The notes beneath the pieces are model-generated. The model was not told the DNA's origin. It was given only the letters and a program-made list of their open reading frames with translations, and did no database searches. A stretch of 57,889 nucleotides of DNA from a virus. Taxonomy: Duplodnaviria > Caudoviricetes. The stretch lies in the IMG/VR virus record IMGVR_UViG_3300047551_001006, positions 1 to 57,889 of that record, one strand, 5' to 3'. Shown in pieces: positions 3,624 to 57,889 of this stretch. A program made the translations under genes and the position numbers. The stretch's first letter is position 1. Every line of letters begins with the position of its first letter.

Positions 3624-4535
3624 ATGAATCTAATATCTCTTTTATCGCAAATACTCGGTGATTACAAGGAAATGGGCAAGGGGGAACATTATTTCTCCTG
3701 TCCGTTTTGCCATCATCACAAGAAGAAGTTTGCGGTTAATGTTCTAAAGAATAAGTGGAAGTGTTGGGTATGTGGTTCACGTGGTAATCATCTAATTGGA
3801 CTATTCAAGAAGTTAGATGTCTCTCCAGCACAGATAAAAGAACTGAAGAAGTGTTTGAATGACGATGATATTAAGAGTTACGTAGATACAAGTGATGAAG
3901 TAGTTGAGTTACATCTTCCATACGAGTTCAAACCACTTTGGAAACCTGTTGATAGTTTTGAATATAAGCACGCAATCAATTATTTGAAGAAGCGTGGCAT
4001 CTCTGGATATGACATCATCCGTTATCGTATGGGATATTGTGAGTCGGGTCAATATGGTGGTCGTATTATCGTTCCCTCATATGGGGTAGATGGGAAGTTG
4101 AATTACTTTGTCGCACGAGCATATCACGACACAAATATGAAATACAAGAACCCACCTGTATCAAAGAATGTGGTGGTATTTGAAGAACAGATTAATTGGA
4201 ACGAACCGATTGTACTAGTGGAAGGAGTATTCGATGCAATCTCAGTTCGACGAAATGCAATCCCGATGTTGGGAAAATTCCTACCAAAAAAATTAGAAGT
4301 CAAACTACTTGAAAATCAAGTCAAGACTGTGTATATTCTTCTTGACGATGATGCACGAACCGAAGCACTCCAACTGGAACAGAAGTTGAAGTCGTTCGGG
4401 ATGAATGTATCCCAAGTCTCTGTGAGTGGTGGTGATGCCGGAGAACTTGGGTTCCAAAAGACTTGGGAGTTTATTAACAACGCCAAGCAATCGACATTTA
4501 AGGACTTTATACAAAGTAGGTTACAGAATACATGA
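3624..4535 (+). CDS. dnaG: DNA primase (zinc-binding domain + TOPRIM)
   Basis: CPFC..HH..CWVC zinc finger; VEGVFDAI and LDDDA TOPRIM acidic motifs. Confidence 0.9.
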   Translation: MNLISLLSQILGDYKEMGKGEHYFSCPFCHHHKKKFAVNVLKNKWKCWVCGSRGNHLIGLFKKLDVSPAQIKELKKCLNDDDIKSYVDTSDEVVELHLPYEFKPLWKPVDSFEYKHAINYLKKRGISGYDIIRYRMGYCESGQYGGRIIVPSYGVDGKLNYFVARAYHDTNMKYKNPPVSKNVVVFEEQINWNEPIVLVEGVFDAISVRRNAIPMLGKFLPKKLEVKLLENQVKTVYILLDDDARTEALQLEQKLKSFGMNVSQVSVSGGDAGELGFQKTWEFINNAKQSTFKDFIQSRLQNT

Positions 4536-7500
4536 AACATACAATTATCGATGTCCCATTCAGTAAGTTACGACGAATAGTTCACCTAGCAGATATTCAT
4601 ATTCGATTATTCAAGCGACACGATGAATATCGTGAATGTTTCGAAACCCTTTATAACCAGTTGCGTCAAGAAGATTTGACCGACTCGGTTATTGTCGTTG
4701 CTGGTGATATTCTCCACGCAAAGACGGATATGAGTCCTGAGATGGTGGTGATGGCAACGGAGTTCCTAAAGTCGTTAGCAGATATCGCACCGACGATTAT
4801 TATCGCAGGTAATCACGACCTCAACCTTTCCAATATGAATAGATTGGATAGTTTGACTCCGTTGGTTACAAGTATCAATCATCCTAATCTGTATTATCTT
4901 AAAAACTCTGGTATCTATACATTTGGTGACACCGACTTCGCAGTATATTCCATCCTCGACGATAAGGAATCATGGCCAACCTATAAGGACTGCACCTCTC
5001 GTCGTAAGGTTGCTCTCTACCACGGACCTGTCCACGGTGCACAAACAGATGCACGATATGTGATTACCAATCGGCATGTTGAGGTGTCTACGTTCAACGG
5101 TTTTGATATGGTATTGTTGGGTGACATCCATCGTTATCAAATCCTCCAAGAGAAGAGTGATGGAAAACCAATTGTAGTATACTCCTCGTCACTCATCCAA
5201 CAGAACCACGGAGAAAGTGTAGATAATCACGGATGGTGTTTGTGGGATATGCAAACCCTTACGCATCAGTTTAGACCACTCCCAAACAACTTTGGATATT
5301 ATACGTTGGAAGTCAAGAACGGAAAGGTACCTGTACTAACAGACGTACCAAAGAATGTTCGTATGCGTATCTTTACGGGTACCTTAGATACTACGGGTGT
5401 CAAGAAGTTAGTGTCGGTATTGAGAAAGCAACACAACATTATTGAATTGAGTATCAATAAGTCCAGACACGATAACACGGAACGAGAGAAGTTAAAGAGT
5501 GGATTGGAAGTAATGGATGTTCAGAATGTCAATCTCCAGAATACTCTTATCCAAGATTGGTTAGAACGGACCTACGATAATACCATCAGTCCAAATTTGA
5601 TGAAGCAAGTGTTGGAGGTCAATAAGAACCTCAATAATGCCATCAATCACGAGGACCATTCTCGTAATGTGAATTGGCGTCCTATCCAACTGAAGTTCTC
5701 CAATATGTTCTCCTATGGTGAGGACAATATCATTAACTTCGGGAAGATGAAGGGAATATACGGAGTGTTCGCACCGAACGCTACGGGTAAGAGTTCATCT
5801 ATGGACGCACTTATTTTCTGTCTCTACGATAAGACCCCACGTGCATTCCGTGGTGACCACATTATGAATAATCGTAAGGACGAATTCACATGCCAATTAA
5901 AGTTTGAAATCAACGATGAAATCTTCTACATTCGTAGAACGGGAACTCGTAAGAAGAATGGTGATGTCAAGGTTGATGTGTCTTTTTGGAAGGAAAATGA
6001 GGACGGAACACACACCTCCTTGAATGGTGAGGACCGTAGAGATACGAACGCCAATATCCGTAATTATGTTGGTAGTTATGAGGACTTCGTATTGACCGCA
6101 TTGAGTGGTCAAACGAGTAATGCTCTCTTCATCGACAAATCACATAGTGAAAGAAAAGACCTTCTTATTCAGTTTATGGGATTAAGTATCTTCGATAAGT
6201 TATGCGACACAGCAAATGACGAGATGAAGGAAATCTCCGGAGCACTTCGTAAGTTTAAGAAGATAGACTTTACCCAGACACTATCTGATACACAGACGAA
6301 GTTGGAAGCTACCCGTGAGGAACATGAACGGGTAGAAGGTATTTTTGGAAGGGTCAAACAGGAACAGGAAACCCTCTACGAAAACTTACGGGAACTCCAA
6401 GGTAAAAAGAAACCTGTTCCAGATATTGAATTAGATATGGATACACTCTTATCGACCAGAGATAAGACCATAGAACTTGCGACATCGTATGAAGAAGGTA
6501 AGCAGGAAGCTGAGAAACGATTAGAAAAACTTAATCAGTATATCACAGAACAAACAAAAGAGTTGTTAGATGCAAACCTTCCAGAATTACGACAAGCGGT
6601 AAGTGAATACGATAGACTATCTGGACTATTTAACAAAGGGTCATCTGCACTTAAATTGACCACTTCCAAGATTGGGGAAAAGGAAAAGTTTAAGACCAAG
6701 TTGGAAAGCTACAAGTATAATCCAAACTGTGATGTCTGTGTAGAAAACAATAAGTCGGTAATTGATGACGCAGAACAAGTCACTCATGAACTAATTGAGT
6801 TGTATGCTCTTCAATCCAACCAAGAAGAAGCTATCGAACAAATCAAGACCCAGATGGAACCCTTGGTCGAAAAGGTTAATCTATGTAGGAACTATGAGAA
6901 ACTACAAACGGATATCCAACAATTCCAGAAGAAGGCAGATGGGGTGGAATTGGAAATCCAGAAGTTAATTACGAATATTGAGAAGTGTGACCGCAAACGA
7001 GAGCAAGTGGAAAACGATATCGAACTTCATCGGTCAAACAAAGAAAATATTGAACACAATTTAGATATTGATAAACAAATCTCGTTCGTCGAACACGACA
7101 TCACGGCAGCTAAGAAAAAGTCAGACCATATGGAAAAGGTCATCCGTGAACTCCACGGTGAGGTCAAGGTATTAGAAGCATCAAAGACCGATATTATGAA
7201 CCAGATTAAGGAAGCTGAAGAGTTGGAGAATACTTACGAAGCGTACAAGTATTATATGGAAGCAGTCGGTCGTGATGGTATCCCATACGAATTGATGAGT
7301 AAGGCAATCCCTAATATCGAAGCTGAAATAAATAATATTTTAACACAGATTGTGGACTTTACTATTTCCCTCGAAGTAGATGGAAAGAACATCGTTGGTA
7401 AGTTAAACTACGACTATGACCGCATTTGGCCGCTGGAAAACTCATCAGGTATGGAACGGTTCATTAGTAGTTTGGCAATCCGTGTAGCATTAATGAACGC

Positions 7501-9573: not shown

Positions 9574-12374
9574 TGGACATAAACAAACTTTTTGAACGAG
9601 TATTAGTACTAGACGATTATGTAGAACAACATAATTTTCTTGTAGCAAAGCTTGCCCCTTCGTTAGTAAATGAATTAACTATTACAAATACCGATACGTT
9701 GGATGAAGCTACCAAGAAGAGAAAGAAGGCTAAGAAGAAAATTAAGGGATACGGATTTTTCTATCCATTATATCCTCGTGTAATAAAAACTGGTGAGCAA
9801 CCAAAAGAAGAACCAACAACCCCACCACCAACAGACAGCGGTGACACGGGTGGTGCAGACGCAGGTGCAGGTGAAGGTGGTAGTGCAGATGAAGCAGGAA
9901 TGGTTTATCCCTATTCACTTGGTCCGGAGCACGATGATGAATTCATACAGAAAGAAGCGTTGTCTAGCACGGAACGGATGCGGAGATACAATAAGCGTCA
10001 TCCCGAAAAAGTTCGAAAGTACCTTAAAAAGACTCAGGATGACCGCGTTGCCCGTAACCGCGACCGCAAGAAGGCAATCAAGAAGTACGGCAAGTCAAAG
10101 ATGAAAAACCACGATGTGCATCATCCAAATGGTGCACAAAATGGTAAATGGAAATTAGCTCGTAAAGACCACGGACGAGATAAGAAAAACGAAAATATAG
10201 AATATGTCTATCTTTCGGAATTGTATGAAGGACTTGTCCCAAATGGTCCGTGGAGATTGATAGTAGAAGGTGGTGCTGCGGGACATTTGGCACATCCATA
10301 CGAAGATGATAGTTTAACATTCGCAGACATCAAGGAAATGATTAAGCGCGGGTTGGTCGGTAGTTTAGACCAAGAAGCACCCGTGACCGAAAAACTTGAT
10401 GGACAAAACTTGACCTTTAGTGTTCGTGATGGTCGAGTAGTATTTGCTCGTAATAAAGGTCAAATCAAGGGGTTTGGTAAGAATGCGCTTGATGTTGCGG
10501 GTATTCGTAGTATGTTCGCAGGTCGTGGGGCAATCGAAAAATCATTTACCAGTGCGGCGGAAGATTTACAAGCAGCGGTGGATGCACTTCCATCAGAACA
10601 AAGAGAACAGATGTTTGGTGAAGGTCGTAAGTTTATGAACTTGGAAGTTATCTTTCCAGATACCAAAAATGTTATTCCATACGATAAACCTGTATTAGTA
10701 TTTCACGGAACTATCGAATACGACGAAAATGGTGAAGAAGTTGGTCGTAATATTGATGATGGTAAAGTATTTGATCAACAATTACAAGCAGTGAATGCAC
10801 AAAAACAAAAGACCTTCGGCTTATCAGGTCCACAATCTATTTCATTTAGTGATGCAGATACGGCACGAAATATGGAAAAGATGAAAGAATATGGGGCAAC
10901 CTTGGCACGATTACAACAAGAATTTGACCTTGATGATAAGAGTACCTTGGAAGATTACAAGAAGGCTTGGTGGAGAAGAGAAATTGATAAGATGGGGGTC
11001 AATCTTACCGATGAACAAAAAGAAAAGTTAGTACTCCGTTGGGCAACTGGTGATAAAAAAGCAATCGGGGTCAAGGATTTTGAAGATCCTGAAACCAAAA
11101 AATGGTTTAGACAATTCGAAGGAGAACAACTTGCTGATATGCAAAAGGCTTGTGTTCGTCCAGTAGAAAAGGTATTTTTACAGGTCGGGGTAGATACATT
11201 ACGACGAGTCACCAACTTATTAGCGGCTAATAATCCAGAAGCTGCGGCAATGTTAAAACAAGAATTAATAGATGCAATCAAGGCGGTTAAAGAAACTGGT
11301 GATAGAAACCAACTCGCTATCTTACAAAAACAAATCGAACGATTGGATGATTTGGGAATAGAAAACATAGTACCAAGTGAAGGTATTGTGTTTATGTACA
11401 AGGGTAAACCATACAAATTTACAGGCACCTTTGCTCCCGTCAATCAAATCCTCGGTATGATGAAGTTTAGTCGTGGAAAGGCAAAGGAAGTGGAAGAACC
11501 AGAAGAAAAACCAGCAGAAGAACCAAAGGTAGCCACTCAAACTACCACAACACCAACTGGTGAAAAACGAACGGTGGCAATCTTTACTGGTCGGTTCCAA
11601 CCATTCCACGCAGGACATTTTAGTATTTATCAAGCACTGGTCAAGAAATTTGGTAAAGATAATGTGTATATCGCAACAAGTGATAAGACAGACCCAACCA
11701 AATCACCATTTGGTTTTAAAGAAAAGCAACAAATTATTACTCGTATGTTTGATATTCCAGAAGATAGAATTGTACAAGTTAAAAACCCATATTCACCAAA
11801 AGAAATATTGGGACAACTACCACCAGATACTACTTACGTAACTGCGGTCAGTCAAAAGGACTCTGAACGATTGACGGGTGGAAAATATTTCAAAAATTAT
11901 GATGAAGTTCCTGATGCAGAACGAAAGGGATATGGTGAGCAAGGATACTACATCATCGCACCAGAAATGCAACTTCAACTCCAAGGTAAGAATATTAGTG
12001 GAACCCAAGTACGAGCAATATTTGGCAATCCAAAAATTACAGATAGAGCAAAGCAAGAAATTTTTACGATGATATATGGAAAATTTGACCCAGACATCTT
12101 TAAGAAAATTGTTAAAGTCACTACCGACTCCGAAGAAGCATTAAAGTTGACACAACAACACGGTGGTGAAAAGGCTGCAAAGGCTAAGATAAAGGATAAG
12201 GAACCAGCAGCAAAGAAACAACCAAAAACAAAACCAACACCAAAAGACCCATCATTCTACAAACCTGGGGAAACCTGGGAAACAGAGGGTGGAAACTTTG
12301 GTGGTAAAAATAAAAAGAACCAAGTACGATATTTCGGTACACAAGAAAGAGCAAAGAGATTTGCACAAACCTAA
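9573..12374 (+). CDS. Multidomain protein: degenerate HNH-like segment, ligase-like KxDG domain, HxGH cytidyltransferase-like domain
   Basis: 933 aa; NHDVHH in a basic segment; EGGAAGHLAHP..VTEKLDGQN; FTGRFQPFHAGH..ISGTQVR. Confidence 0.65.
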   Translation: MDINKLFERVLVLDDYVEQHNFLVAKLAPSLVNELTITNTDTLDEATKKRKKAKKKIKGYGFFYPLYPRVIKTGEQPKEEPTTPPPTDSGDTGGADAGAGEGGSADEAGMVYPYSLGPEHDDEFIQKEALSSTERMRRYNKRHPEKVRKYLKKTQDDRVARNRDRKKAIKKYGKSKMKNHDVHHPNGAQNGKWKLARKDHGRDKKNENIEYVYLSELYEGLVPNGPWRLIVEGGAAGHLAHPYEDDSLTFADIKEMIKRGLVGSLDQEAPVTEKLDGQNLTFSVRDGRVVFARNKGQIKGFGKNALDVAGIRSMFAGRGAIEKSFTSAAEDLQAAVDALPSEQREQMFGEGRKFMNLEVIFPDTKNVIPYDKPVLVFHGTIEYDENGEEVGRNIDDGKVFDQQLQAVNAQKQKTFGLSGPQSISFSDADTARNMEKMKEYGATLARLQQEFDLDDKSTLEDYKKAWWRREIDKMGVNLTDEQKEKLVLRWATGDKKAIGVKDFEDPETKKWFRQFEGEQLADMQKACVRPVEKVFLQVGVDTLRRVTNLLAANNPEAAAMLKQELIDAIKAVKETGDRNQLAILQKQIERLDDLGIENIVPSEGIVFMYKGKPYKFTGTFAPVNQILGMMKFSRGKAKEVEEPEEKPAEEPKVATQTTTTPTGEKRTVAIFTGRFQPFHAGHFSIYQALVKKFGKDNVYIATSDKTDPTKSPFGFKEKQQIITRMFDIPEDRIVQVKNPYSPKEILGQLPPDTTYVTAVSQKDSERLTGGKYFKNYDEVPDAERKGYGEQGYYIIAPEMQLQLQGKNISGTQVRAIFGNPKITDRAKQEIFTMIYGKFDPDIFKKIVKVTTDSEEALKLTQQHGGEKAAKAKIKDKEPAAKKQPKTKPTPKDPSFYKPGETWETEGGNFGGKNKKNQVRYFGTQERAKRFAQT

Positions 12375-12383
12375 GAGGTTATT

Positions 12384-12998
12384 ATGGCACGAATGGATGA
12401 AAAAGCATTAGGTGATGTAAGAAGAAAAATTGGCGAGGTAATGAAAAAAGGTGATACCAAACTTACCTTTGGATGGACACCTCAACAAGTAGAACGAAAA
12501 GAAGGTGAGGTATGGGAAGATGTGGACGGAAAGAAATGGACCAGAAAGAATGGTGTCATTCAATCCGTCACGAAATTAGATGGTTTCAAAACTCCGTGGT
12601 GGTGTCCAAAGTGTGGAACACCATTAAATGGTATTCATCTAAAGGCATACAAGAAAGCAGGTCACTGCCACGAATGTATGTTAAAAGAAGAAATGGAATT
12701 AAAAAAGTCTGGTAAGTGGCACGATGTAGTTGTTGAAAAAGGTCGCCAAAATCATATTGCAATAATCAAGGACAAAATACAAGAATTACAAAGTTATCAC
12801 GATAATCTCTCGCAACCAGAATTTATCCACGCCGATAACGAAAAAATTTTGATGATTGAAAAGTGGGATATGGATATCGATACTGTTAGAAAAGATTTAG
12901 CAGAAGAAATAACCAAACTACAAAAACATTTGGATATGGTTGAGTCTGGTATGAGTGAAGAAGAAATCAGACAATACTATGAAACACAGGAGCAATAA
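12384..12998 (+). CDS. Hypothetical zinc-ribbon protein
   Basis: 204 aa; CPKC..CHEC; SD GAGG. Confidence 0.6.
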   Translation: MARMDEKALGDVRRKIGEVMKKGDTKLTFGWTPQQVERKEGEVWEDVDGKKWTRKNGVIQSVTKLDGFKTPWWCPKCGTPLNGIHLKAYKKAGHCHECMLKEEMELKKSGKWHDVVVEKGRQNHIAIIKDKIQELQSYHDNLSQPEFIHADNEKILMIEKWDMDIDTVRKDLAEEITKLQKHLDMVESGMSEEEIRQYYETQEQ

Positions 12999-12999
12999 T

Positions 13000-13596
13000 A
13001 TGAAGGTTAAACTATTAGGATTACTACTAGTATTTGCCGGTGCGTTGTATTGGCAAGACAGTACAAGTGATGATGCGATGGACAAGTATATTGAAGAATA
13101 TAAACAATTTCAAGCAAAGGCAGATTCAGTCACAGAATTAGCAGATAGTTTGAAGGCAGAAATCGTCATCGCGGATAACGAATCCAGAGCAGCAGAAAGT
13201 CGAGCAAAGATACTCGGTCGCCAAGTTAACTCATTAAAAAATGAAACGTTGAGTATGGAAGAACGAGCAGAGGTGATGAAAGAAACACTTCTTGACACAT
13301 TAGAACTAGCTCGTCAAGTCTTACCACTCAAAGACTCTATTATCGCAAAACAAAAAGAAACCATCGCAGCACAAGATGGACAAGTCACAGAACTCCAAAG
13401 TGCATTACAAAGTAAGGATAATGCATTACGGATGGCACTGATACGTGGTGATAGTCTCCAAGCAGTCATTAATTTAATTCCACCAGCACCAAAGAACCCT
13501 AACCGTATGTTCGGATTTAAGTTACCAAGTCGTAAGGCATCATTCTTAGTTGGTGTCGCTATGGGTGTTGGAACTTCAATATTGGTGGTCAAGTAA
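13000..13596 (+). CDS. Membrane-anchored coiled-coil protein (possibly spanin-like)
   Basis: Start moved to ATG 13000 after AGGAG; N-terminal hydrophobic helix, long coiled coil, C-terminal hydrophobic helix. Confidence 0.5.
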   Translation: MKVKLLGLLLVFAGALYWQDSTSDDAMDKYIEEYKQFQAKADSVTELADSLKAEIVIADNESRAAESRAKILGRQVNSLKNETLSMEERAEVMKETLLDTLELARQVLPLKDSIIAKQKETIAAQDGQVTELQSALQSKDNALRMALIRGDSLQAVINLIPPAPKNPNRMFGFKLPSRKASFLVGVAMGVGTSILVVK

Positions 13597-48694: not shown

Positions 48695-49360
48695 ATGAGT
48701 GTGCAAATGTTTCGTGAATTACAAGAATTGATTGACACAGCAGAAAATATTGTTATAGCAGTAATACTTGCAGAAGGATGTGAAAATTACAAGGGTAAGT
48801 TTCTAACAGATTTTGAGCAACAAATTAACTCACAATCTAATCCGGTACACTTACACATCATTTGCTATCGTGAAGAACCTATTATGTTCCCACGACCGAT
48901 GACACAAGCAGTGTATTATTTCGCACCAAAGAATTATACACCACTTTTTTATCGTCAAGGTCAAAGAGCGATGGATGCACCAACTGATATTGTTACGGCA
49001 ATAAAAATGGTACAAGGTATGTCTTATTCCGAAGCAGCCTATGGAGCAGACAAAAAAGAAAGTTATGAACGTACCGAACAATTAGTAAAAAATGAAGATA
49101 CATCAAAGTTTCCTTCGTTGTTTCAACAAGCTCGTAATTTTGCAAAAGAAATGTGGCACGCAGGAAAAAACGCAGCAGTTGGGCTACCAGTATTGGTTGA
49201 TGCAGAAACAGCGTTTAATAGATTCCAAACGTGCCAAGGTTGTGAGTTTTTAACACAAGATAGTTTCCGTTGTGAAAAATGTGGATGTTTTATGAAAACA
49301 AAAACACAAATCGCAACTTCTTCGTGTCCGATTGGAAAATGGCACGCTGTAACACAGTAA
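48695..49360 (+). CDS. Hypothetical protein with C-terminal Cys cluster (CxxC..CxxCGC..CP)
   Basis: 221 aa; CQGC..CEKCGC..SCPIGKW. Confidence 0.65.
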   Translation: MSVQMFRELQELIDTAENIVIAVILAEGCENYKGKFLTDFEQQINSQSNPVHLHIICYREEPIMFPRPMTQAVYYFAPKNYTPLFYRQGQRAMDAPTDIVTAIKMVQGMSYSEAAYGADKKESYERTEQLVKNEDTSKFPSLFQQARNFAKEMWHAGKNAAVGLPVLVDAETAFNRFQTCQGCEFLTQDSFRCEKCGCFMKTKTQIATSSCPIGKWHAVTQ

Positions 49361-49405
49361 AAACAAAGTACCAAGTTTAGTTTTTGATATTTATATAAGA
49401 GCACT

Positions 49406-50137
49406 ATGTTAAGACACTTTCCACTTAGAACATTTACATCATCATTCGCATTTACGGGATCGTCAGCAGCAACGGCATCTTTCGTATTGACGGGTATGAC
49501 CGCATCGTATTCTGTTACGGGTGGTGGACCAACCGGAGCAACGGGGGCAACTTCTGTAGTACAAGGGGTTACGGGTGTTACTGGTGCAACGGGTATAGGA
49601 CCAACAGGACCAATAGGAACCACAGGTCCAACAGGTCCACGGTCAGCAACAGGACCAACTGGACCAACAGGTATCACGGGGCCAACGGGTGCAACTGGTG
49701 CAACGGGGGCGGCATCTACTGGTCCAACCGGTGTAATCGGTGTTTCGGGTAGTACTGGACCAACGGGTGCAACAGGGGCAACAGGTATTATTGGTATCAC
49801 AGGTGCAACAGGTCCAACAGGTGCAAGTGGTCCAACTGGTGTAACAGGTATTCAAGGTATCGCAGGACCACAAGGTGTTACGGGAGCAACTGGACCAACT
49901 GGACCAACTGGTGTAGCTGTATCTGGTATCCAAGGACCAACGGGTGTTACAGGTCCAAGTGGTCCTCGTGGTGCATCGGGTCCGCAAGGAACAATCGGAA
50001 CTACAGGTCCAACAGGACCAACAGGTGCACAAGGTACGGCATTTACAGGACCAACTGGTGCAACCGGTGCAACAGGAGCAACGGGACCAACAGGTGCACA
50101 AGGTTCCACAGGTCCAACTGGTGCTAACACACCATAA
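49406..50137 (+). CDS. Collagen-like protein A
   Basis: 243 aa; FPL..TSSF..TASY N-terminus; ~200-aa Gly-X-Thr tract. Confidence 0.8.
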
Positions 50138-50152
50138 TAGAGAGTAATAGTT

Positions 50153-51274
50153 ATGACGTTTAAGTTTTTCCCATTTGGGGCACCAACCACGAGTTCGTTC
50201 GCTATTTCGGTTGTCGGTACTACGGCAACCGCATCGACGGCTATCAATAGTGGTTCGGGATTCTTAACGGCGTCATTTGCATTAGGCGGATTTTCAGGAC
50301 CAACAGGTGTATCGGGACCAACTGGTGCAACGGGAGCAACAGGCCCAACTGGACCAACTGGTGTTTCTGGGTCAACTGGTGTATTGGGTGTATCGGGTTC
50401 TACTGGACCACAAACATCAGGATCAACAGGTCCAACAGGTCCAAGTGGTCCAAGTGGTATATCGGGGCCAACGGGTCCAACAGGTCCTACTGGAGCAACT
50501 GGTGTAATCGGTATTACTGGACCATCTGGTATTCGTGGTGCAACTGGTGCAACGGGAGCAACAGGTCCAACAGGTCCAACAGGTAGTATAAGTACGACCG
50601 CGGGCGCAATCGGTGTATCGGGTGTTACAGGACCAACAGGATCTTCGGGTCCGACTGGAGTACAAGGGTCCACAGGTCCAACTGGTGTCGGTCCAACGGG
50701 TGCAACAGGACCAACGGGGCCATCGGGTTCTACAGGTCCAACAGGTCCAGTAGGTCCAACGGGTGCAACTGGAGCAACAGGACCACAAGGTGCAACAGGA
50801 CCAAATACGTTCGGTATTTCAGGTCCAACAGGAGCAACGGGTGCAACTGGTGTCGTAGGAGCAACAGGTATACAAGGTGCACCAGGTCGTGCAGTATTTT
50901 TCGTAACAGGTTCATGTAACCAAACACATTCTGACGTTACGGTTCCGCATAGTGATATTGCACAAAGTCATACTAATATTACGGCCGCGCATACAGACAA
51001 TACCACCAATCCATCACACTCGGATATTGTCAGTACTACACCAGCATCACATACGGACAATTATACACCACACACCAATACTACAATCAACGCATCACAT
51101 AGTAATATTACAATAAACGCGTCACATTCTGATATTTCACATTCTAATATTACAATTAACGCAAGTCATACTGATAATACAACAAACTTCCACACAGACA
51201 ATTACACACCACACGGTAATAGTTATACCACCAATAATCATGGAAATTCATACGGCGGAGGTAATCCGTTCTAA
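50153..51274 (+). CDS. Collagen-like protein B with C-terminal H-x-(D/N) repeat domain (P1)
   Basis: 373 aa; ~200-aa Gly-X-Y tract, one Cys, then 14 HxD/HxN motifs (from nt 50927). Confidence 0.8.
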
Positions 51275-51286
51275 TCGGATATAGTT

Positions 51287-51949
51287 ATGGCTCATTCTAA
51301 TTTTTATATAGCCGCATCGCACACCAACGCAGCAGGGTCGCATACCAATAGTACCGCTGCGCACACGGATAATACTACTCCTGCGGCGCATACTAATATT
51401 GCACATCAAAATGCAACTATTCCTGCAGCACATACCGACAACACCACTTCGTTTAGTAACATAGCATTCAGCAACATAGCATTTTCCAATAGTTACACTC
51501 CACACACTAATATCGCACACAGTAACATCGCACATAGTGATGGTGGATTTACAAATACTACAATACCATTTAGTAATATCGCAAAAGCACATACAAATAT
51601 AGCGCATACCGATACACCGAAGTCACATACTGATATTGATTTTAGTAACATAGCATTCGCAAATAATTACACAAGTAATAATCACACAGATAATACTACA
51701 AATCCAGCACATACTGATATCGCACACACCAACAATAGCTCGGCACATACTGATAGTACAATTAACAATTCACACGCAGATAATACAACACTACATTCGA
51801 ATATTGCACATGCAGATTCACCGCATGTCGATTCTTACACTCCGGCACAGTGCTCACAGTGTCCTGGTGGTAATGCAGCAGAATGTGACGAATTCTGCGC
51901 TTGTTATCCAAACTGTGGATGTCAAGATAATATATGTGTAGGTACATAA
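51287..51949 (+). CDS. [H/F]-x-[D/N] repeat protein with C-terminal 8-Cys domain (P2)
   Basis: 220 aa; 28 motifs, then CSQC..C..CAC..CGC..C. Confidence 0.8.
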   Translation: MAHSNFYIAASHTNAAGSHTNSTAAHTDNTTPAAHTNIAHQNATIPAAHTDNTTSFSNIAFSNIAFSNSYTPHTNIAHSNIAHSDGGFTNTTIPFSNIAKAHTNIAHTDTPKSHTDIDFSNIAFANNYTSNNHTDNTTNPAHTDIAHTNNSSAHTDSTINNSHADNTTLHSNIAHADSPHVDSYTPAQCSQCPGGNAAECDEFCACYPNCGCQDNICVGT

Positions 51950-51976
51950 TAAAATGTTTATAATAGGGAATAACTA

Positions 51977-52741
51977 ATGCCAGGTCCTACTCATACAAAC
52001 ATAGCACATAGTGATATAGGATTTAGTAACGTTTCTGCCGCGCATACTGACGTTACTATTAATTCTTCACATACGGATAATACACTTCCGCATGGTAATA
52101 TTGCATTTACTAATAGCACTATTCCCGCAGCACACACAGACAATACAACATTTACAGCACATACCAACACACCACACAGTAATATATCATTTGTTAACAG
52201 TACCACACCATTTAGTAATATTTCTTTTTCAAATAGTTACACACCACATAGTAATATTGGAGCATCGCATACAAATATTGCACACAGTAATACAGCATTT
52301 AGTAACGTAGGATTTAGTAATATCGCACAAGGACACACCAATATATCACATAGTAATATCAGTCATAGCAACATTTCTGCCGCACATACGGACAATACTA
52401 CTAACCTATCACATAATGATACGGGACATGTAGATTCTACAATCAACGCAAGTCACACGGACAATTATACAGGTCCATCGCATAGTGATAATACGACACC
52501 AGCATCGCATAGTGATATCGCATTCTCAAATATCACCATTAATGCATCACATGATGATATTACAATAAATGCAAGTCATACAGATATAGCAAAAGCACAT
52601 ACAGATACAACCATTAACGCATCACACACTAATATCGTCAGCACCACACCAGCGGCACATACAGATAACACTACATCATTTAGTAATAGTTATACTCCAC
52701 ACTCAAATGTTGCGGCAGCCCATAGTAACGCATTCCTATAA
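51977..52741 (+). CDS. [H/F]-x-[D/N] repeat protein (P3)
   Basis: 254 aa; 36 motifs making up almost the whole protein. Confidence 0.8.
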   Translation: MPGPTHTNIAHSDIGFSNVSAAHTDVTINSSHTDNTLPHGNIAFTNSTIPAAHTDNTTFTAHTNTPHSNISFVNSTTPFSNISFSNSYTPHSNIGASHTNIAHSNTAFSNVGFSNIAQGHTNISHSNISHSNISAAHTDNTTNLSHNDTGHVDSTINASHTDNYTGPSHSDNTTPASHSDIAFSNITINASHDDITINASHTDIAKAHTDTTINASHTNIVSTTPAAHTDNTTSFSNSYTPHSNVAAAHSNAFL

Positions 52742-52750
52742 TACGAGAAT

Positions 52751-53614
52751 ATGACGCAATTTTTTCCACTTGGTACACCAACCACATCAAGCTTCTCACT
52801 CACCAGTAGTTTAGCGTTTGTCGCAACGTATGCGGTGAATGTAAATGTGTTAACCGCATCTTACGGACCAGGACCAACAGGACCAACAGGTGTTCGTGGA
52901 CCATCAGGACCAACAGGACCACAAGGACAAGCTGGTTCAGGTTCTACAGGTCCAACAGGTGCAACAGGACCAACAGGATTAACAAGTTCAGGTCCAACAG
53001 GACCAACTGGACCTGCGGGGACAATAGGTATAACAGGTATTACTGGTGCAACGGGTGTAACAGGTAGTACAGGTCCAACAGGACCAACTGGTATCACGGG
53101 TGTAATTGGTATTACGGGTATTAGTGGTGTAACAGGCATCGCATCATTCGCATCGGGTTCTACAGGACCAACTGGAGCAACTGGAGCTACTGGTGCAACG
53201 GGTGTGGTGGGTATTACTGGTGCAACAGGGGTAATCGGTATTACAGGACCAACAGGATTAACAAATCTTGTTGGTATTACAGGCCCAACAGGACCAGTAG
53301 GATTACCCACCACAGGTTCCACAGGTCCGTCAGGTCCACAAGGTGCAACGGGTGTAATAGGTGTTACTGGTATATCCGCAGCAGCTGCATCGGCAGGAAC
53401 GGGTGGAGTGGGAGGTACTACAGGAGTCCAAGGACCAACAGGACCACAGGGTTCTCGTGGAGTTGATGCAGAATGTCCGGCTGGGTTTGTTACCTGTACT
53501 GAAGGATCCCCTTCATCTGGGTCAAATTTCTATACTAATCCAAATAGTAGTATATATTCTGTGGTTTGTGCAGCAAGACCTGTAGGTTGTTTAGGAACAT
53601 TTACTTGTGTCTAA
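52751..53614 (+). CDS. Collagen-like protein C with C-terminal Cys-containing domain
   Basis: 287 aa; FFPLG.PTTSSF N-terminus; ~200-aa Gly-X-Y tract; 5 Cys in the last 50 aa. Confidence 0.8.
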
Positions 53615-53687
53615 CGTCATTTTCTTGATTGTAGGTGTAAAAAATACTACTTATATGAAGGTAGACGTTATGTGGAGATTTTAATAT

Positions 53688-54899
53688 ATGCCAAAGGCAC
53701 CTGGTAGTATTTGGGTTGATGGAGAAACCTTTAGATTTATTGATGCAACAGGAAACGAGTACTATTATACAGGTACTGCGGGTTCCAGTCCTGCGGGAGC
53801 AAAGGCGGGTTCAATCTGGGTAGACGGAAATGATTTCCATTATATTTCCGCTACCGGTGTTGACCGCACTATTGCATCAAGTGATTTGGGAGCGGCATCA
53901 GGAGCAAAGGTTGGATCGGCATGGGTGCAAACCACATTTTGGAATTGGATTTCTACCGCTGGTAATGTTCGTCGTGGTCATACAGACGTAACCGCAGCAC
54001 ATACGGACAATACCACCCCAGCATCCCACACAGATATCGCGTTCGTCAATACCACGATTAACGCAGCACATACAGACAACACGACGATAGCAGCACATAC
54101 AAACAACTATACTCCGCATACAAACACCACGATTAACGCAGCACATACTGATAATACCACCAACGCAAGTCACACAGATATCGCACACACCAACACCACG
54201 ATTAACGCAGCACATACCGATACCACAATCAACGCATCACATACCAACAACTATACTCCACACACTAACACAACGATTAACGCAGCGCATACAGACAACA
54301 CCACACCAGCTGCACATACCGATAATACGACTCCATTTAGTAATATAGCATTTAGTAATTCATACACACCAAATAGTCATACTAACAGCTATACTCCACA
54401 TAGTAATATCGGTCACACCAATATCGGTGCAGCACATACCGATAACACTACACCATTTAGTAATACAGCATTCGTCAATAGTTATACCGGAAATAATCAT
54501 ACCAACAATTACACGCCGCATAGTAATATCGGACATAGTAACATAGGATTTAGTAATATTGGATTCAGTAATATCGGATTCAGCAATATCGCAAAGGCAC
54601 ATACAGATAATACTACTAACGCAAGTCATACCAATATCGCACACAGTAATGTCGGGTTCAGTAACAGTTATACTGGATTTACCAATAGTTATACTCCATT
54701 TAGTAATGTTGGATTTAGTAATATTGGTGTAAGTCATACTAATATTGGACATAGTAATGTAGCACATAGTAATGTCGGTGCAAGTCATACCAATATTGGA
54801 CACAGTAATGTTGGGTTTAGTAATAGTTATACACCATTTGCTAATAGTTACACACCAAATAATCACGGTAACAGTTACCAAGGTGGTCCTTCGTTCTAA
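53688..54899 (+). CDS. Protein with N-terminal 3x GS(I/A)WV domain and 44 [H/F]-x-[D/N] motifs (PA)
   Basis: 403 aa; 97-aa head, then repeats from nt 53979; SD GGAG; TACTTATA at 53648. Confidence 0.82.
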   Translation: MPKAPGSIWVDGETFRFIDATGNEYYYTGTAGSSPAGAKAGSIWVDGNDFHYISATGVDRTIASSDLGAASGAKVGSAWVQTTFWNWISTAGNVRRGHTDVTAAHTDNTTPASHTDIAFVNTTINAAHTDNTTIAAHTNNYTPHTNTTINAAHTDNTTNASHTDIAHTNTTINAAHTDTTINASHTNNYTPHTNTTINAAHTDNTTPAAHTDNTTPFSNIAFSNSYTPNSHTNSYTPHSNIGHTNIGAAHTDNTTPFSNTAFVNSYTGNNHTNNYTPHSNIGHSNIGFSNIGFSNIGFSNIAKAHTDNTTNASHTNIAHSNVGFSNSYTGFTNSYTPFSNVGFSNIGVSHTNIGHSNVAHSNVGASHTNIGHSNVGFSNSYTPFANSYTPNNHGNSYQGGPSF

Positions 54900-54921
54900 T
54901 TATGTTTAACGGATAAATAAT

Positions 54922-55845
54922 ATGTCGCATTCAAATTTTTACAATGCTGCATCACATACTAATGTGGCTACAAGTCATACTAATATTGGATTCAGTAATG
55001 TTGGATTCAGTAACAGCTATACTCCGTTTAGTAATGTCGGATTTAGTAATGTTGGATTCAGTAATAGTTACACCCCACATAGTAATGTAGCACATAGTAA
55101 TGTTGGGGCAAATCATACAAATATTGGTGCAAATCACACGAATATCGGATTTAGTAATGTCGGATTCAGTAATTCATACACACCAAATAGTCATACTAAC
55201 AACTATACCCCACATAGTAATATCGGTCACAGTAATATTGGGCATAGTAACATCGGATTTAGTAATATAGCATTTAGTAATATTGCAAAGGCACATACAG
55301 ATAACACCACAAATGCAAGTCACACCAATATCGCACATACTAATATTGGTGCAGCACATACAGATAGTACTACACCATTCAGTAATATAGCATTTAGTAA
55401 TATTGCAAAGGCGCATACTGATACCACTATCAACGCAAGTCATACAAATATTGCGCATAGTAATATTGGTGCGGCACACACGGATAATACTACCAATCCA
55501 TCACATACTGATAATACTACCAACGCATCACACACCGATATTGCAAAGGCACACACCGATACCACGATTAACGCTTCACATACTGACAATACCACCAACG
55601 CAAGTCATACAGATATTGCGTTCGTCAATACCACCATTAACGCCGCACATACGGATAATACCACTATCGCATCACACACCGATATTGCGAAGGCACATAC
55701 AGACAACACCACACCAGCCGCCCACACAGATAACACCACCCCAGCATCACATACCGACATCGCACATACTAACACTACGATTAACGCAGCCCATACGGAC
55801 AACACCACACCACATAGTGACCAACCAGTATTCGTTGGTCCATAA
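54922..55845 (+). CDS. [H/F]-x-[D/N] repeat protein with 44 motifs (PB), mirror partner of PA
   Basis: 307 aa = MS + 295 aa of repeats + HSDQPVFVGP. Confidence 0.82.
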   Translation: MSHSNFYNAASHTNVATSHTNIGFSNVGFSNSYTPFSNVGFSNVGFSNSYTPHSNVAHSNVGANHTNIGANHTNIGFSNVGFSNSYTPNSHTNNYTPHSNIGHSNIGHSNIGFSNIAFSNIAKAHTDNTTNASHTNIAHTNIGAAHTDSTTPFSNIAFSNIAKAHTDTTINASHTNIAHSNIGAAHTDNTTNPSHTDNTTNASHTDIAKAHTDTTINASHTDNTTNASHTDIAFVNTTINAAHTDNTTIASHTDIAKAHTDNTTPAAHTDNTTPASHTDIAHTNTTINAAHTDNTTPHSDQPVFVGP

Positions 55846-55852
55846 TTGGGGC

Positions 55853-55881
55853 TTGACAAGTGGTGAGCCGTTTGGTATATT
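55853..55881 (+). promoter_or_regulatory. Sigma70-type promoter for the radical SAM operon
   Basis: TTGACA (55853-55858), 17-nt spacer, TGn-extended TATATT (55876-55881). Confidence 0.75.
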
Positions 55882-55910
55882 ACAAAATGATTTATTAATC
55901 ACGAGGTTAT

Positions 55911-57224
55911 ATGACTATTGAATTAGAACCAGTTGGAGTAGTATGTAATTTAAGTTGCCCGTATTGCTACGAACATCCTATGCGCGATGCGGGAAATTTT
56001 CGTCATAAAACATACTCTGTAGAGAAAATGTTAGAAGGTCTTGCCAAAGAGGGACATAACTTTACCTTATTTGGTGGTGAACCATTATTAACTGATATTG
56101 ACGATTTAGAAACTATTTTTAAGTGGGGTTATGAACGTTATGGAATGAATGGCGTTCAAACAAATGGTGTTTTAATCACCGACCGCCACATCGAAATGTT
56201 TAAGAAGTATAACGTTCACGTTGGAGTGTCCCTTGACGGACCCGATGAAATGAACGATACTCGTTGGGCTGGGTCATTAGAAAAGACCAGAGAAGCCACC
56301 CGTAAATCATTTGAAGCTATTAAAAAGTGTTTAGCTAATAAACTATCACTTGGATTAATTATTACCATTCATACAAAGAATGGATTACCAAAACATCGTG
56401 AACGTTTCAAGAATTGGATTAAAGAACTCCAATCGTGGGGTGTTGATGGAGCAAGACTTCATCCATTAGAAATTGACCATAGTGCAGTCGGTGAAACATT
56501 AGCCCTAACACCAGAACAAAATATTGAATTCTTACTTGATATGTGGGAATTTGAACTTAAAGAATTGAACGTTCCTGGTAAAAAGTCATTCCACTTTGAT
56601 ATTTTCCGTGATGTGGAAGATATGTTAAAAGCACAAGATGATAACGCTACGTGTACGTTCTTATCGTGTGACCCATATACTACACACGCGGTGCAAGGTA
56701 TTGACTCGCAAGGTAACAAAGCAAATTGCGGTCGTGGAAATAAGGAAGGTATTAACTGGATTAAGGCCGATGTAGACGGATTCGAACGTCAGATGGCTTT
56801 ATATAATACTCCACAGGAGCATGGTGGTTGTCAGGGATGTCGTTTCTTTATTATGTGTAAGTCGCACTGTCCTGGTACAGGTATTGAGATGGACTGGAGA
56901 AATCGTACTGATACTTGCATGAATTGGAAAGTAGCGTTTGGTATCTACGAAAAGTTGATGGTGGAAAAAGGTGAGACACCATTATCATTAAGTCCAGAAT
57001 TAAAGAAATATGAAGATATTTTAATGTATGGTTATAGTCGCGGTGTAGAACTTAGATTAAAACATATTAAGCAATATCTTGAAGGAAACTTCAATATAGA
57101 AGCATTTATTGACAGTTACCTTAAAAACCAAGCATTTGGATCACAAATACCACATGCAGACCATACTGATGAAACTGGACGTTACGCTATTGAGTATAAA
57201 GAGAAGTACGGATATTTACCTTAA
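55911..57224 (+). CDS. Radical SAM/SPASM-domain enzyme (peptide/protein maturase-like)
   Basis: CNLSCPYC (CxxxCxxC), FGGEPLL, QTNG, VGVSLDG; SPASM-type Cys array CTFLSC..NC..CQGCRFFIMCKSHCP..C; SD GAGG. Confidence 0.92.
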   Translation: MTIELEPVGVVCNLSCPYCYEHPMRDAGNFRHKTYSVEKMLEGLAKEGHNFTLFGGEPLLTDIDDLETIFKWGYERYGMNGVQTNGVLITDRHIEMFKKYNVHVGVSLDGPDEMNDTRWAGSLEKTREATRKSFEAIKKCLANKLSLGLIITIHTKNGLPKHRERFKNWIKELQSWGVDGARLHPLEIDHSAVGETLALTPEQNIEFLLDMWEFELKELNVPGKKSFHFDIFRDVEDMLKAQDDNATCTFLSCDPYTTHAVQGIDSQGNKANCGRGNKEGINWIKADVDGFERQMALYNTPQEHGGCQGCRFFIMCKSHCPGTGIEMDWRNRTDTCMNWKVAFGIYEKLMVEKGETPLSLSPELKKYEDILMYGYSRGVELRLKHIKQYLEGNFNIEAFIDSYLKNQAFGSQIPHADHTDETGRYAIEYKEKYGYLP

Positions 57225-57244: not shown

Positions 57245-57616
57245 ATGATTGACGGATTACACGCAGACCATATAGACACAACTGGTGCCTACGGTCAAAA
57301 ATTCGCAGTAGTACAAGAACTACTCGAAACAGGAGTACTAAAAGAAATTCCAGAGGAATTCCGTGAAAAGGGTGCAGAAAGTGTACCAGTAGTAACTACT
57401 TCACAAACAGTAATTGGTGATGAATTTGATATGACCAACGGACATGCTGATCACGTTGACGAAACTGGTCGCTATGCACGTGCATATGAAGAACGATTCG
57501 GTGCAGGATCACTTGGTGAATCATCAAACTCACAACAAGAAGAACAAGCTGGTAATTCATGGAAGTCTTTCTTACAAAAGATTATCGCTGAAGAAAAGAG
57601 TAAGTTGAAGGTTTAA
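57245..57616 (+). CDS. Small acidic protein with two HADHxDxTGxY motifs
   Basis: 123 aa; LHADHIDTTGAYG and GHADHVDETGRYA; the motif also ends the radical SAM enzyme. Confidence 0.75.
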   Translation: MIDGLHADHIDTTGAYGQKFAVVQELLETGVLKEIPEEFREKGAESVPVVTTSQTVIGDEFDMTNGHADHVDETGRYARAYEERFGAGSLGESSNSQQEEQAGNSWKSFLQKIIAEEKSKLKV

Positions 57617-57635: not shown

Positions 57636-57889
57636 ATGCAAAGAATAAAGCACGTCCTGCCTGACTGGACTCGTGTGCAGTGGACTAGTATTGAAAATAG
57701 AAATAAGTACGAACCTATTATCAATTCTATTAATGCTGCATGGAAACAAATTGAACGTATGTCGGTGGTGCACGATATTAGACCATCCTCGTTGGATATC
57801 GTATCACCAAACGAACTCGTACAACTTACAGAAGAATATAAAAAGTACGGAGTACTTGTAGTTCCTCTTGCGAAAGAAGGTAAGTCATC
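57636..57889 (+). CDS. Hypothetical protein, truncated by the window end (MQRIKHVLPDWTRVQWTSIENRNKYEPIINSINAAWKQIERMSVVHDIRPSSLDIVSPNELVQL...)
   Basis: ATG 57636 after GAAGGGG; frame open to the end of the window; absent from the ORF track because no stop is reached. Confidence 0.75.
   Translation, partial: MQRIKHVLPDWTRVQWTSIENRNKYEPIINSINAAWKQIERMSVVHDIRPSSLDIVSPNELVQLTEEYKKYGVLVVPLAKEGKS

Follow-up and report, generated by a model that had tools for sequence, protein, structure and literature searches.

Radical S-adenosylmethionine (SAM) enzymes with a SPASM domain are known as maturases of short secreted peptides and for a few single-site modifications of proteins. One of them, anSME, works on whole proteins without a leader or a recognition domain and oxidizes one Cys or Ser per protein. 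Here we describe a block of fibre-like repeat genes and a radical SAM/SPASM gene in a tailed-phage contig (IMG/VR record IMGVR_UViG_3300047551_001006; Duplodnaviria, Caudoviricetes), the whole 57,889 bases of which are referred to as the window. Among the described systems, three-residue cyclophanes joining His C2 to a beta carbon are made in HAA, HNR and HTK motifs by HaaB, YhhB and HtkB, and HtkB takes Phe in place of His (PMC11499958). In the HXS anti-phage system, HxsC and HxsD form a complex by pull-down and the modification maps to a His-containing motif (PMC13128918). In the Thermus phages Cumys and phiMa, Cumys_13, Cumys_12 and Cumys_11 constitute an “rSAM module” for which DNA modification was proposed (10.1101/2024.08.14.607894, PMC11437467), so that the gene trio is already in print as a module of unknown function.

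The block in the window is an enlarged version of a conserved system with three parts, namely proteins rich in an aromatic-x-Asp/Asn triplet, a radical SAM/SPASM enzyme of an unnamed family, and a partner protein with a DUF483 domain. It is the most expanded cassette seen, with five candidate substrate genes, one of them on a collagen stalk, and with heavy use of Phe and Asn. The triplet proteins are quite probably the substrates of the enzyme and its partner, as we infer from the evidence below. Leaving the exact bond aside, we consider it reasonably likely that this pair post-translationally modifies the triplet arrays of fibre-like proteins.

The repeat genes lie on the + strand. Protein A (positions 50153-51274, 373 aa) has a collagen-like Gly-x-Thr stalk and, towards its C-terminus, an array of 14 His-x-Asp/Asn triplets that takes in 14 of its 14 His; it matches Pfam Collagen with 87.6 bits against a cut-off of 27.2, and PHROG tail fibre families with a best E value of 5.8e-46. 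Protein B (51287-51949, 220 aa; no Pfam or NCBIfam family above cut-off) carries 28 triplets of the form H/F-x-D/N, with 21/21 His in a triplet, and then a C-terminal segment with 8 Cys. Protein C (51977-52741, 254 aa) carries 36 such triplets, again with every His (27/27) in one; compared to its orthologues in the related contigs L006 and L007 (fetched loci are numbered with L throughout), 97% of the cells at aromatic and Asp/Asn positions retain the residue class, and the other positions are 67% identical. Protein E (53688-54899, 403 aa) begins with a domain of three repeats of about 30 residues and contains 46 triplets, 44 of which form an array after residue 95. It is a homologue of Cumys_13, which in Thermus phage Cumys directly precedes the radical SAM gene (BLASTP E 8e-22), and its N-terminal domain is also found in 22 open reading frames (ORFs) of the fetched loci; in the ESM Atlas, this domain gave scores of 0.83-0.84 only, which is the chance range. 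Protein F (54922-55845, 307 aa) has 45 triplets, with 32/32 His and 13/13 Phe in the motif, and ends in His-Ser-Asp-Gln-Pro-Val. Protein D (52751-53614, 287 aa), which is collagen-like (Pfam Collagen 83.5 bits, cut-off 27.2) and has a Cys-containing C-terminal end, lies inside the block, yet with 0 triplets it is no candidate substrate by motif. The original prediction had counted 14+28+36+44+44 (about 166) motifs in five proteins directly upstream of a CxxxCxxC and SPASM enzyme. The recount of 14, 28, 36, 46, and 45 gives 169 triplets, 167 of them inside arrays, and the order of the genes agrees with that description, the radical SAM/SPASM enzyme (55911-57224, + strand, 437 aa) being the next gene after protein F.

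The triplets, counted as overlapping [HF].[DN], are far more numerous than the composition of the proteins would give. In 500 shuffles of their own residues, proteins A, B, C, E, and F had means of 2.0, 6.2, 7.6, 9.4, and 9.6 triplets and maxima of 6, 13, 14, 18, and 19; the observed numbers are 4-7 times the shuffle expectation and were attained by no shuffle. The three big fibre proteins encoded upstream (1983, 1340, and 1132 aa) have 9, 3, and 5 triplets, respectively, which is the chance level. Within the arrays, where the statistics for single residues used [HFYW].[DN], 124/125 His, 45/51 Phe, and 63/69 Asp are part of a triplet. The pairings are His with Asp (60), His with Asn (64), Phe with Asn (44), and Phe with Asp (1), and 157 of the 167 spacings are of 5, 7, or 9 residues. 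The DNA repeats underlying the arrays have diverged, mostly to 65-93% matches, therefore the arrays are not fresh duplications.

Comparison with related sequences indicates which part of the repeat is kept. Between the repeat proteins and their orthologues in related contigs, the class of the aromatic and Asp/Asn residues is kept in 87-97% of aligned cells and the other residues are 61-67% identical, which is soft evidence given how easily repeats slip in alignment. In four lineages, 94-98% of the array His are in H-x-D/N (the ORFs were picked by triplet density and the comparison was not blind, though that pick does not force the share of His in triplets). The constant elements are the aromatic residue and the Asp/Asn alone; between them stands Thr, Ser, Gly, Ala, Val, Gln, or another residue, the flanks vary, and the spacing ranges from 3 to 9. 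A triplet conserved under such variation of the middle, flanks, and spacing points to a site that is read rather than to one fold. The aromatic residue is mostly His, with Phe in the window and Tyr elsewhere; Tyr or Phe stands in place of His at 8-19% of sites across the four lineages, and Trp substitution occurs too. These replacements fit an aromatic-specific enzyme and do not fit metal binding.

Several further features of the repeat proteins were observed. The order of triplet types in protein E resembles that of a reversed protein F (53979-55845), E passing from His-x-Asp-rich to Phe/His-x-Asn-rich and F the opposite way. When the arrays are aligned as tokens, E scores 16 with F reversed and −5 with F forward (shuffle mean 5.0, standard deviation 3.8, maximum 16). 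An exact mirror order of the two arrays was rejected, and at the coding used there is at best a gradient-like reversal, which is suggestive of antiparallel pairing. The His-(Ser/Ala)-Asp-Gln-Pro-Val/Glu end of the last repeat protein is kept in distant phages (window 55816-55845; L002 about 9960-9992; L022 about 4520-4558) and may be a terminal recognition or capping element. Cys-rich C-terminal ends are present in B (8 Cys; 51820-51949) and D (5 Cys; 53480-53614), and in the related contigs L009 (5428-6639) and L011 (5988-7148) a similar end is found on the E-type protein instead. Such an end may form a tip domain or offer the SPASM enzyme an alternative substrate.

The enzyme has the cluster motif C12-x3-C16-x2-C19, the SPASM cysteines C307-x2-C310-x5-C316-x3-C320, and the further cysteines C248, C253, C273, and C336, all of which are invariant in 37 aligned relatives; the C-terminal Cx2Cx5Cx3C motif is present in 52/52 orthologues. 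It scores 58.5 bits against Pfam Radical_SAM (PF04055; cut-off 29.5), which places it in the superfamily. The Pfam SPASM model is absent from its matches at E <= 0.01, and it is the Cys motif, together with the fold similarity to SPASM enzymes (anSME, ChlB, CteB), that supports the SPASM assignment. The cluster motif begins at residue 12, and there is no N-terminal recognition domain. Its AlphaFold model has a predicted local distance difference test score (pLDDT) of 82.4, with residues 409-426 below 50.

The relationship of the enzyme to named families was measured by profile, sequence, and fold. The best NCBIfam model is anSME TIGR03942 (73.2 against a threshold of 349.45), the DynA model is second best, and PRK13745 gives 52.5 against 484. 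The original prediction proposed placing the enzyme against the triceptide maturases, and it belongs to no named triceptide family: YhhB (67.7/445), AmcB (62.3/425), GrrM (52.1/310), FxsB (49/370), and XyeB (38.5/450) all remain far below threshold. HxsB and HxsC models are not among the 25 best of 56 NCBIfam matches. The matches to the anSME, DynA, and triceptide models align over residues ~10-170 only, and the same pattern (anSME, AmcB, DynA, YhhB, PapB, and GrrM models) recurs in 16/16 diverse family members. In a profile search of PDB sequences, anSME (2.5e-19) and ChlB (1.4e-11) come first, then SkfB and CteB; Foldseek with the enzyme model returns anSME (E 1.1e-12) and ChlB (E 5.5e-12), then CteB and SkfB, with viperin-like and MoaA-type enzymes lower. 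By sequence and model comparisons, the enzyme thus belongs to an unnamed clade of its own, placed with the maturases of proteins and peptides rather than with cofactor or nucleic-acid enzymes, and clustering with cofactor or DNA-modification radical SAM families, which would have spoken against the proposed cross-linking, is not seen. The family is large, with 1270 database proteins at E <= 1e-5 and more than 120 at E < 1e-123.

The disordered C-terminal tail of the enzyme itself carries His-Ala-Asp-His-Thr-Asp. Next to the enzyme gene, protein G (57245-57616, + strand, 123 aa) repeats the tail segment twice, with 58% identity to enzyme residues 409-434; it has no Pfam, NCBIfam, or PHROG match, and phmmer matches to it occur in 14 ORFs of the fetched loci. 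The shared motif may serve as a pseudo-substrate, as a tag for docking, or as a site of self-modification.

A third component, overlooked earlier, is the gene cut by the end of the window (57636-57889, + strand), the first 84 codons of which belong to a DUF483-methyltransferase. This ORF is 31% identical (E 2e-10) to the N-terminus of phiLo_141, the gene after the enzyme in Thermus phage phiLo. The full partner gene in the close relative L008 encodes 493 aa and matches Pfam DUF483 (27 bits, cut-off 25) and, weakly, class I methyltransferase models. The methyltransferase domain is missing from many DUF483 partners, such as that of Cumys (312 aa) and many bacterial ones (~300 aa). A DUF483 homologue adjoins the enzyme, or is fused to it, in 27/30 bacterial orthologue loci (19/19 with full flanks, the 3 misses being at contig ends), and is found by the enzyme in 20/23 viral contigs and 3/3 Thermus phage isolates, against 0/50 control loci of unrelated radical SAM genes. 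In six bacterial loci (L030, L033, L034, L036, L040, and L053), enzyme and DUF483 form a single fused protein. The DUF483 protein is an obligatory partner of the enzyme.

Structure prediction suggests that the two proteins bind each other. The predicted enzyme-DUF483 complex has an interface score (ipSAE) of 0.85, the best of 3 controls having 0.00; this mark was attained by 58/80 solved complexes and 2/110 mismatched pairs, counts that apply only approximately, as the prediction used our own alignments. The runs share at least 73% of contacts, and the partner has a pLDDT of at least 85. In the predicted complex, the DUF483 partner binds the SPASM domain of the enzyme, the interface involving the family-invariant R293, L297, D328, R330, and N331 of the enzyme and the invariant W16 and I250 of the partner. 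The DUF483 model (pLDDT 88.2) has no PDB or BFVD match at E <= 0.001 in Foldseek, and its profile gave nothing below E 0.64 against PDB sequences. The best PDB fold match, the cysteine methyltransferase NleE, was rejected as an analogue (E 0.19, TM score at most 0.39), and the best BFVD match is an uncharacterized phage protein (E 8.4e-3); no function was drawn from either. The nearly invariant C139, C140, and C208 of DUF483 hint at a metal site. Our reading is that DUF483 is the substrate-holding or a second catalytic subunit of a heterodimeric maturase.

The linkage of enzyme and triplet proteins is retained in other phages. A tblastn search of phage records found enzyme orthologues only in the Thermus phages phiLo, Cumys, and phiMa (44-53% identity), and a His-triplet protein accompanies the orthologue in 3/3 of these isolates. 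In Cumys and phiMa, the gene directly 5' of the enzyme (Cumys_13) combines the E-type three-repeat N-terminal domain with 54 His-x-Asp/Asn triplets. In phiLo (L001 15807-21165, − strand), three proteins annotated as hypothetical (474, 782, and at least 509 aa) have 75, 104, and 50 His-x-Asp/Asn triplets; they are encoded on the strand opposite to the enzyme, ~4 kb downstream of it. Among viral contigs with an orthologue, 19/23 have a triplet-rich gene by the aromatic-inclusive criterion and 16/23 by the stricter His-only one; the 4 misses by the former all have less than 3.5 kb of upstream sequence.

The same linkage was sought outside viruses. From a scan of bacterial and archaeal genomes, 80 loci were kept, 30 with orthologues and 50 with unrelated radical SAM/SPASM genes as controls. 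A triplet-rich ORF is present in 14/30 orthologue loci (11/19 of those with more than 4 kb on both sides) and in 0/50 controls (Fisher p 1e-7). Co-occurrence across genomes, which the original prediction had set as a check, is thus positive. The bacterial candidate substrates are mostly short Pro-His-x-Asp peptides (62-155 aa) encoded directly 5' of the enzyme. Two His-x-Asp proteins (L038 10784-11206 and L045 10219-10500) have, as judged by eye, twin-arginine (Tat-type) signal peptides, and these products are probably exported. The earlier view that the product is structural rather than an antibiotic or secreted peptide holds for this phage and does not extend to the whole system, given the short and Tat-signal peptides of bacteria. 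No protease, exporter, or leader-type gene was found among the 10 window proteins scanned against Pfam and NCBIfam. In 26 bacterial loci, the only family to recur apart from the enzyme, DUF483, and artefacts of antisense ORFs is an unnamed one of 272 aa. It is present at 6 loci (L038 11596-12414, with homologues at 5 others), and has a P-loop-like Gly-His-Gly-Lys-Ser motif and no Pfam match.

The pair of enzyme and DUF483 protein would act as a protein maturase on all triplets of proteins A, B, C, E, and F, either ahead of fibre assembly or in the course of it. It would take a hydrogen from the beta carbon of the Asp or Asn and then bond this carbon to the aromatic ring two residues upstream, with a three-residue cyclophane of the triceptide kind as the result. 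The grip on the substrate that is missing from the enzyme would come from the DUF483 domain, and the methyltransferase may add a second modification. We tentatively rank this cyclophane chemistry first because the layout, an aromatic, a variable residue, and a residue with an attackable beta carbon, matches that of triceptides. The His/Phe alternation also fits triceptide chemistry, as Phe is accepted there in place of His (PMC11499958). A stronger form, in which the fibres of tailed phages consist in part of “poly-cyclophane” proteins with dozens of His/Phe-to-Asp/Asn carbon-carbon rings per chain made by a heterodimeric radical SAM-DUF483 maturase, is a more doubtful proposition. What stands of the earlier interpretation is that enzyme and repeats belong together and that the enzyme is kin to maturases; its best named relative is anSME, and it is a member of no named triceptide family. 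The inter-chain links and the stiffer, protease-resistant fibres of the original prediction are conjectures.

Several points weigh against modification of the triplets by this pair. The single best named relative, anSME, oxidizes a side chain and is not known to make a cross-link, and no curated NCBIfam family threshold is passed by the enzyme. Some 169 sites would consume ~169 SAM per protein set, and the enzyme would have to find them with no leader peptide for guidance. The His-x-Asp tail of the enzyme is found in only 17/52 orthologues and is disordered in the model. In bacteria, no His-rich ORF is found in the stored flanks of 16/30 orthologue loci (five being short contigs), including 8/19 with full flanks, so that the enzyme-DUF483 pair can exist without a nearby triplet gene. 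The five-residue units fit the pentapeptide-repeat consensus, though the Pfam matches are weak and below cut-off, and the triplet pattern could be due in part to a beta-solenoid with unmodified ladders of Asn and aromatic residues. The virion, a fairly likely place for the repeat proteins in our estimate, is suggested by two lines only, the position of the genes and the similarity to collagen and tail fibres, and the support for enzyme chemistry on the triplets is computational throughout.

The same enzyme and substrates may be joined by a different triplet chemistry, which is possible, if not what we expect. Candidates are a link from His nitrogen to carbon, inter-chain or inter-triplet links, anSME-type oxidation, epimerization, and a radical step with subsequent methylation by the fused methyltransferase. 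Oxidation gains from anSME being the best named relative, and a nitrogen link from the DynA model ranking second in NCBIfam, the product dynobactin having a His-N to Tyr-Cβ link. HxsB and HxsC give +8 Da on a Ser-His-Arg-Ser-Ser motif (PMC13128918), so related systems need not give the −2 Da per motif expected of triceptide products, and in the clade of the window a methyltransferase is fused to the partner. That domain is, however, missing from many partners, the varying middle residue cannot be the target, and a constant aromatic with a beta-CH2 residue two positions on is the exact triceptide layout (PMC11499958). Cyclophane formation on the triplets therefore keeps its tentative first rank.

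Two further explanations remove the triplets from the enzyme altogether. The arrays would be purely structural or metal-binding, with beta-solenoid Asn/aromatic ladders or His/Asp cation sites, and the pair would act elsewhere, on the Cys-rich ends of B and D, the tail of the enzyme, or protein G. The near-exclusive pairing of Phe with Asn (44 vs. 1) and the odd-number spacings do look like a packing rule, and there are weak pentapeptide-repeat matches (Pentapeptide_2, 22 against 26.4 in E; Pentapeptide_4, 18.1 against 38 in B); the Cys-rich ends on B, D, and the E-type proteins of L009 and L011, and the bacterial loci lacking a triplet gene (16/30), point the same way. We nevertheless regard this as unlikely: Cumys_13 and the short bacterial peptides are without Cys-rich ends, whereas every neighbour that is found carries triplets; the spacing of 3 to 9 between lineages means that no single fold is conserved, such arrays occur at 0/50 control loci, and Phe at the His position cannot bind metal. 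Modification of phage DNA by the radical SAM/DUF483 pair, as proposed for Cumys and phiMa, would make the repeat proteins unrelated neighbours and is the least probable of the explanations considered, indeed improbable. In its favour, some cyanobacteria are reported to have homologues beside deazapurine genes for DNA modification (10.1101/2024.08.14.607894), DUF483 is fused to a methyltransferase domain, and a SNF2-type helicase-like gene, judged from sequence alone, follows the cassette in L008. Yet the relatives of the enzyme in sequence and fold are protein and peptide maturases, with viperin-like and MoaA-type enzymes ranking lower, and no DNA-modification family recurs among the neighbours in the 26 bacterial loci. 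The sole cyanobacterial locus examined (L031) shows housekeeping genes and no deazapurine cluster, its only QueC-model match being weak and inside a tRNA methyltransferase. The accessible text of the Thermus phage paper, in which “histidine” occurs 0 times, is silent on His repeats (10.1101/2024.08.14.607894). Modification of the triplet arrays by the pair thus remains our preferred explanation.

The setting of the block is a myovirus structural region with terminase, portal, major head protein, sheath, and collagen-like tail fibres, in a contig estimated to hold ~30% of the genome. The large terminase gene is at 13606, the portal at 19055, the major head protein at 26426, and the tail sheath at 30908; at 34255 is the first of the three very large fibre-like proteins (1983 aa), the only one of them to match collagen-type tail-fibre families. 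The collagen-like and repeat genes follow downstream of the three big fibre genes, all on the + strand. Megablast found no close DNA relatives of the window among 50,697 phage records. In L008, a 630-aa SNF2-type-helicase-like protein (11448-13340) follows the cassette, with a tape-measure-like protein further on, both named from sequence, and by these neighbours the cassette of L008 is at a border of structural and replication genes. Just 5' of the collagen and repeat block of the window, a 221-aa protein (48695-49360, + strand) has a C-terminal Cys-rich DUF6171 (27.1 bits, cut-off 27) and also matches a PHROG of unknown function. Long frames on the opposite strand (49123-49800, 49852-50673, and 52861-53322, all −) translate to Pro/Val/Gly repeats; they most likely arise as a side effect of the Gly-x-Thr codon repeats in the collagen-like genes and are not genes themselves. 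In the 65-nt gap before the enzyme gene, a promoter-like site (55853-55881, + strand) reads TTGACA, 17 nt, and a TG-extended TATATT, a near-consensus sigma-70-type site with 11/12 matches; with 28 such sites across the region against a shuffle mean of 32.2, sites are not above shuffles, and this one is a lead only.

If poly-cyclophane fibres are real, the window would have ~170 rings per set of five proteins. This would be the first modification of a virus particle by radical chemistry of the type known from peptides that ribosomes make and that are modified after translation (RiPPs), and an enzymatic cross-linking denser than is known from any other protein. Maturase chemistry would extend to large virus structural proteins with tens of sites per chain, and the bacterial systems with short or Tat-signal products would be its counterparts among peptides. 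The unnamed SPASM clade and DUF483, the model of which has no confident PDB or BFVD analogue, would be a new enzyme-partner pair. It is a speculation that the cassette explains the heat or protease resistance of some phage fibres. The system is widespread and is present in cultivable Thermus phages. In the literature library searched, neither His-x-Asp repeats nor DUF483 were found linked to radical SAM protein modification, the sole relevant DUF483 paper being that on the Thermus phages; nor were the His-x-Asp arrays, their likely substrate role, the bacterial peptide versions, or the predicted enzyme-DUF483 complex found there.

With collagen-like phage tail fibres, the block shares the Pfam Collagen domain of proteins A and D and matches to PHROG tail fibre families. 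The enzyme resembles anSME, its best named relative by hidden Markov model, PDB sequence, and fold, and differs in scoring 73.2 bits against a cut-off of 349 and in having no sulfatase among the 10 window proteins scanned. The HXS anti-phage system (HxsA-D) likewise has a protein with His-x-small-residue repeats matured by radical SAM enzymes and a small partner, but it is a bacterial defence with five His-x-Ser repeats, two radical SAM enzymes, N-terminal cleavage, and export (PMC13128918). The third position of the window repeat is Asp or Asn by construction of the counted motif.

The triceptide synthases (HaaB, HtkB, YhhB, ChlB, XyeB, GrrM/OscB, and FxsB) share with the enzyme the SPASM radical SAM fold, ChlB being its second-best solved relative, and an aromatic-x-x substrate motif in which the beta carbon of the third residue is the bonding site (PMC11499958). 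Both have adjacent genes with aromatic-x-x motifs, in the window 169 triplets in five genes. Instead of short leader-core peptides, the candidate substrates of the window are fibre-like proteins of 220-403 aa with 14-46 sites and no common leader, the third residue of their counted motif is fixed as Asp or Asn, and the enzyme has DUF483 as an obligatory partner but no recognition domain within its own chain. The Cumys/phiMa rSAM module is different in having one repeat protein in place of five; the window also uses Asn and Phe widely, places one array on a collagen stalk, and adds protein G and a methyltransferase fused to DUF483. The two nevertheless have in common an orthologous enzyme (44-45% identity over 97% of the query), an orthologous DUF483 partner, an orthologous upstream protein with the N-terminal domain and a His-x-Asp array, and a position after tail and baseplate genes. 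With enzyme, DUF483 partner, and upstream protein in one block, the cassette of the window belongs by homology with the rSAM module of Cumys and phiMa.

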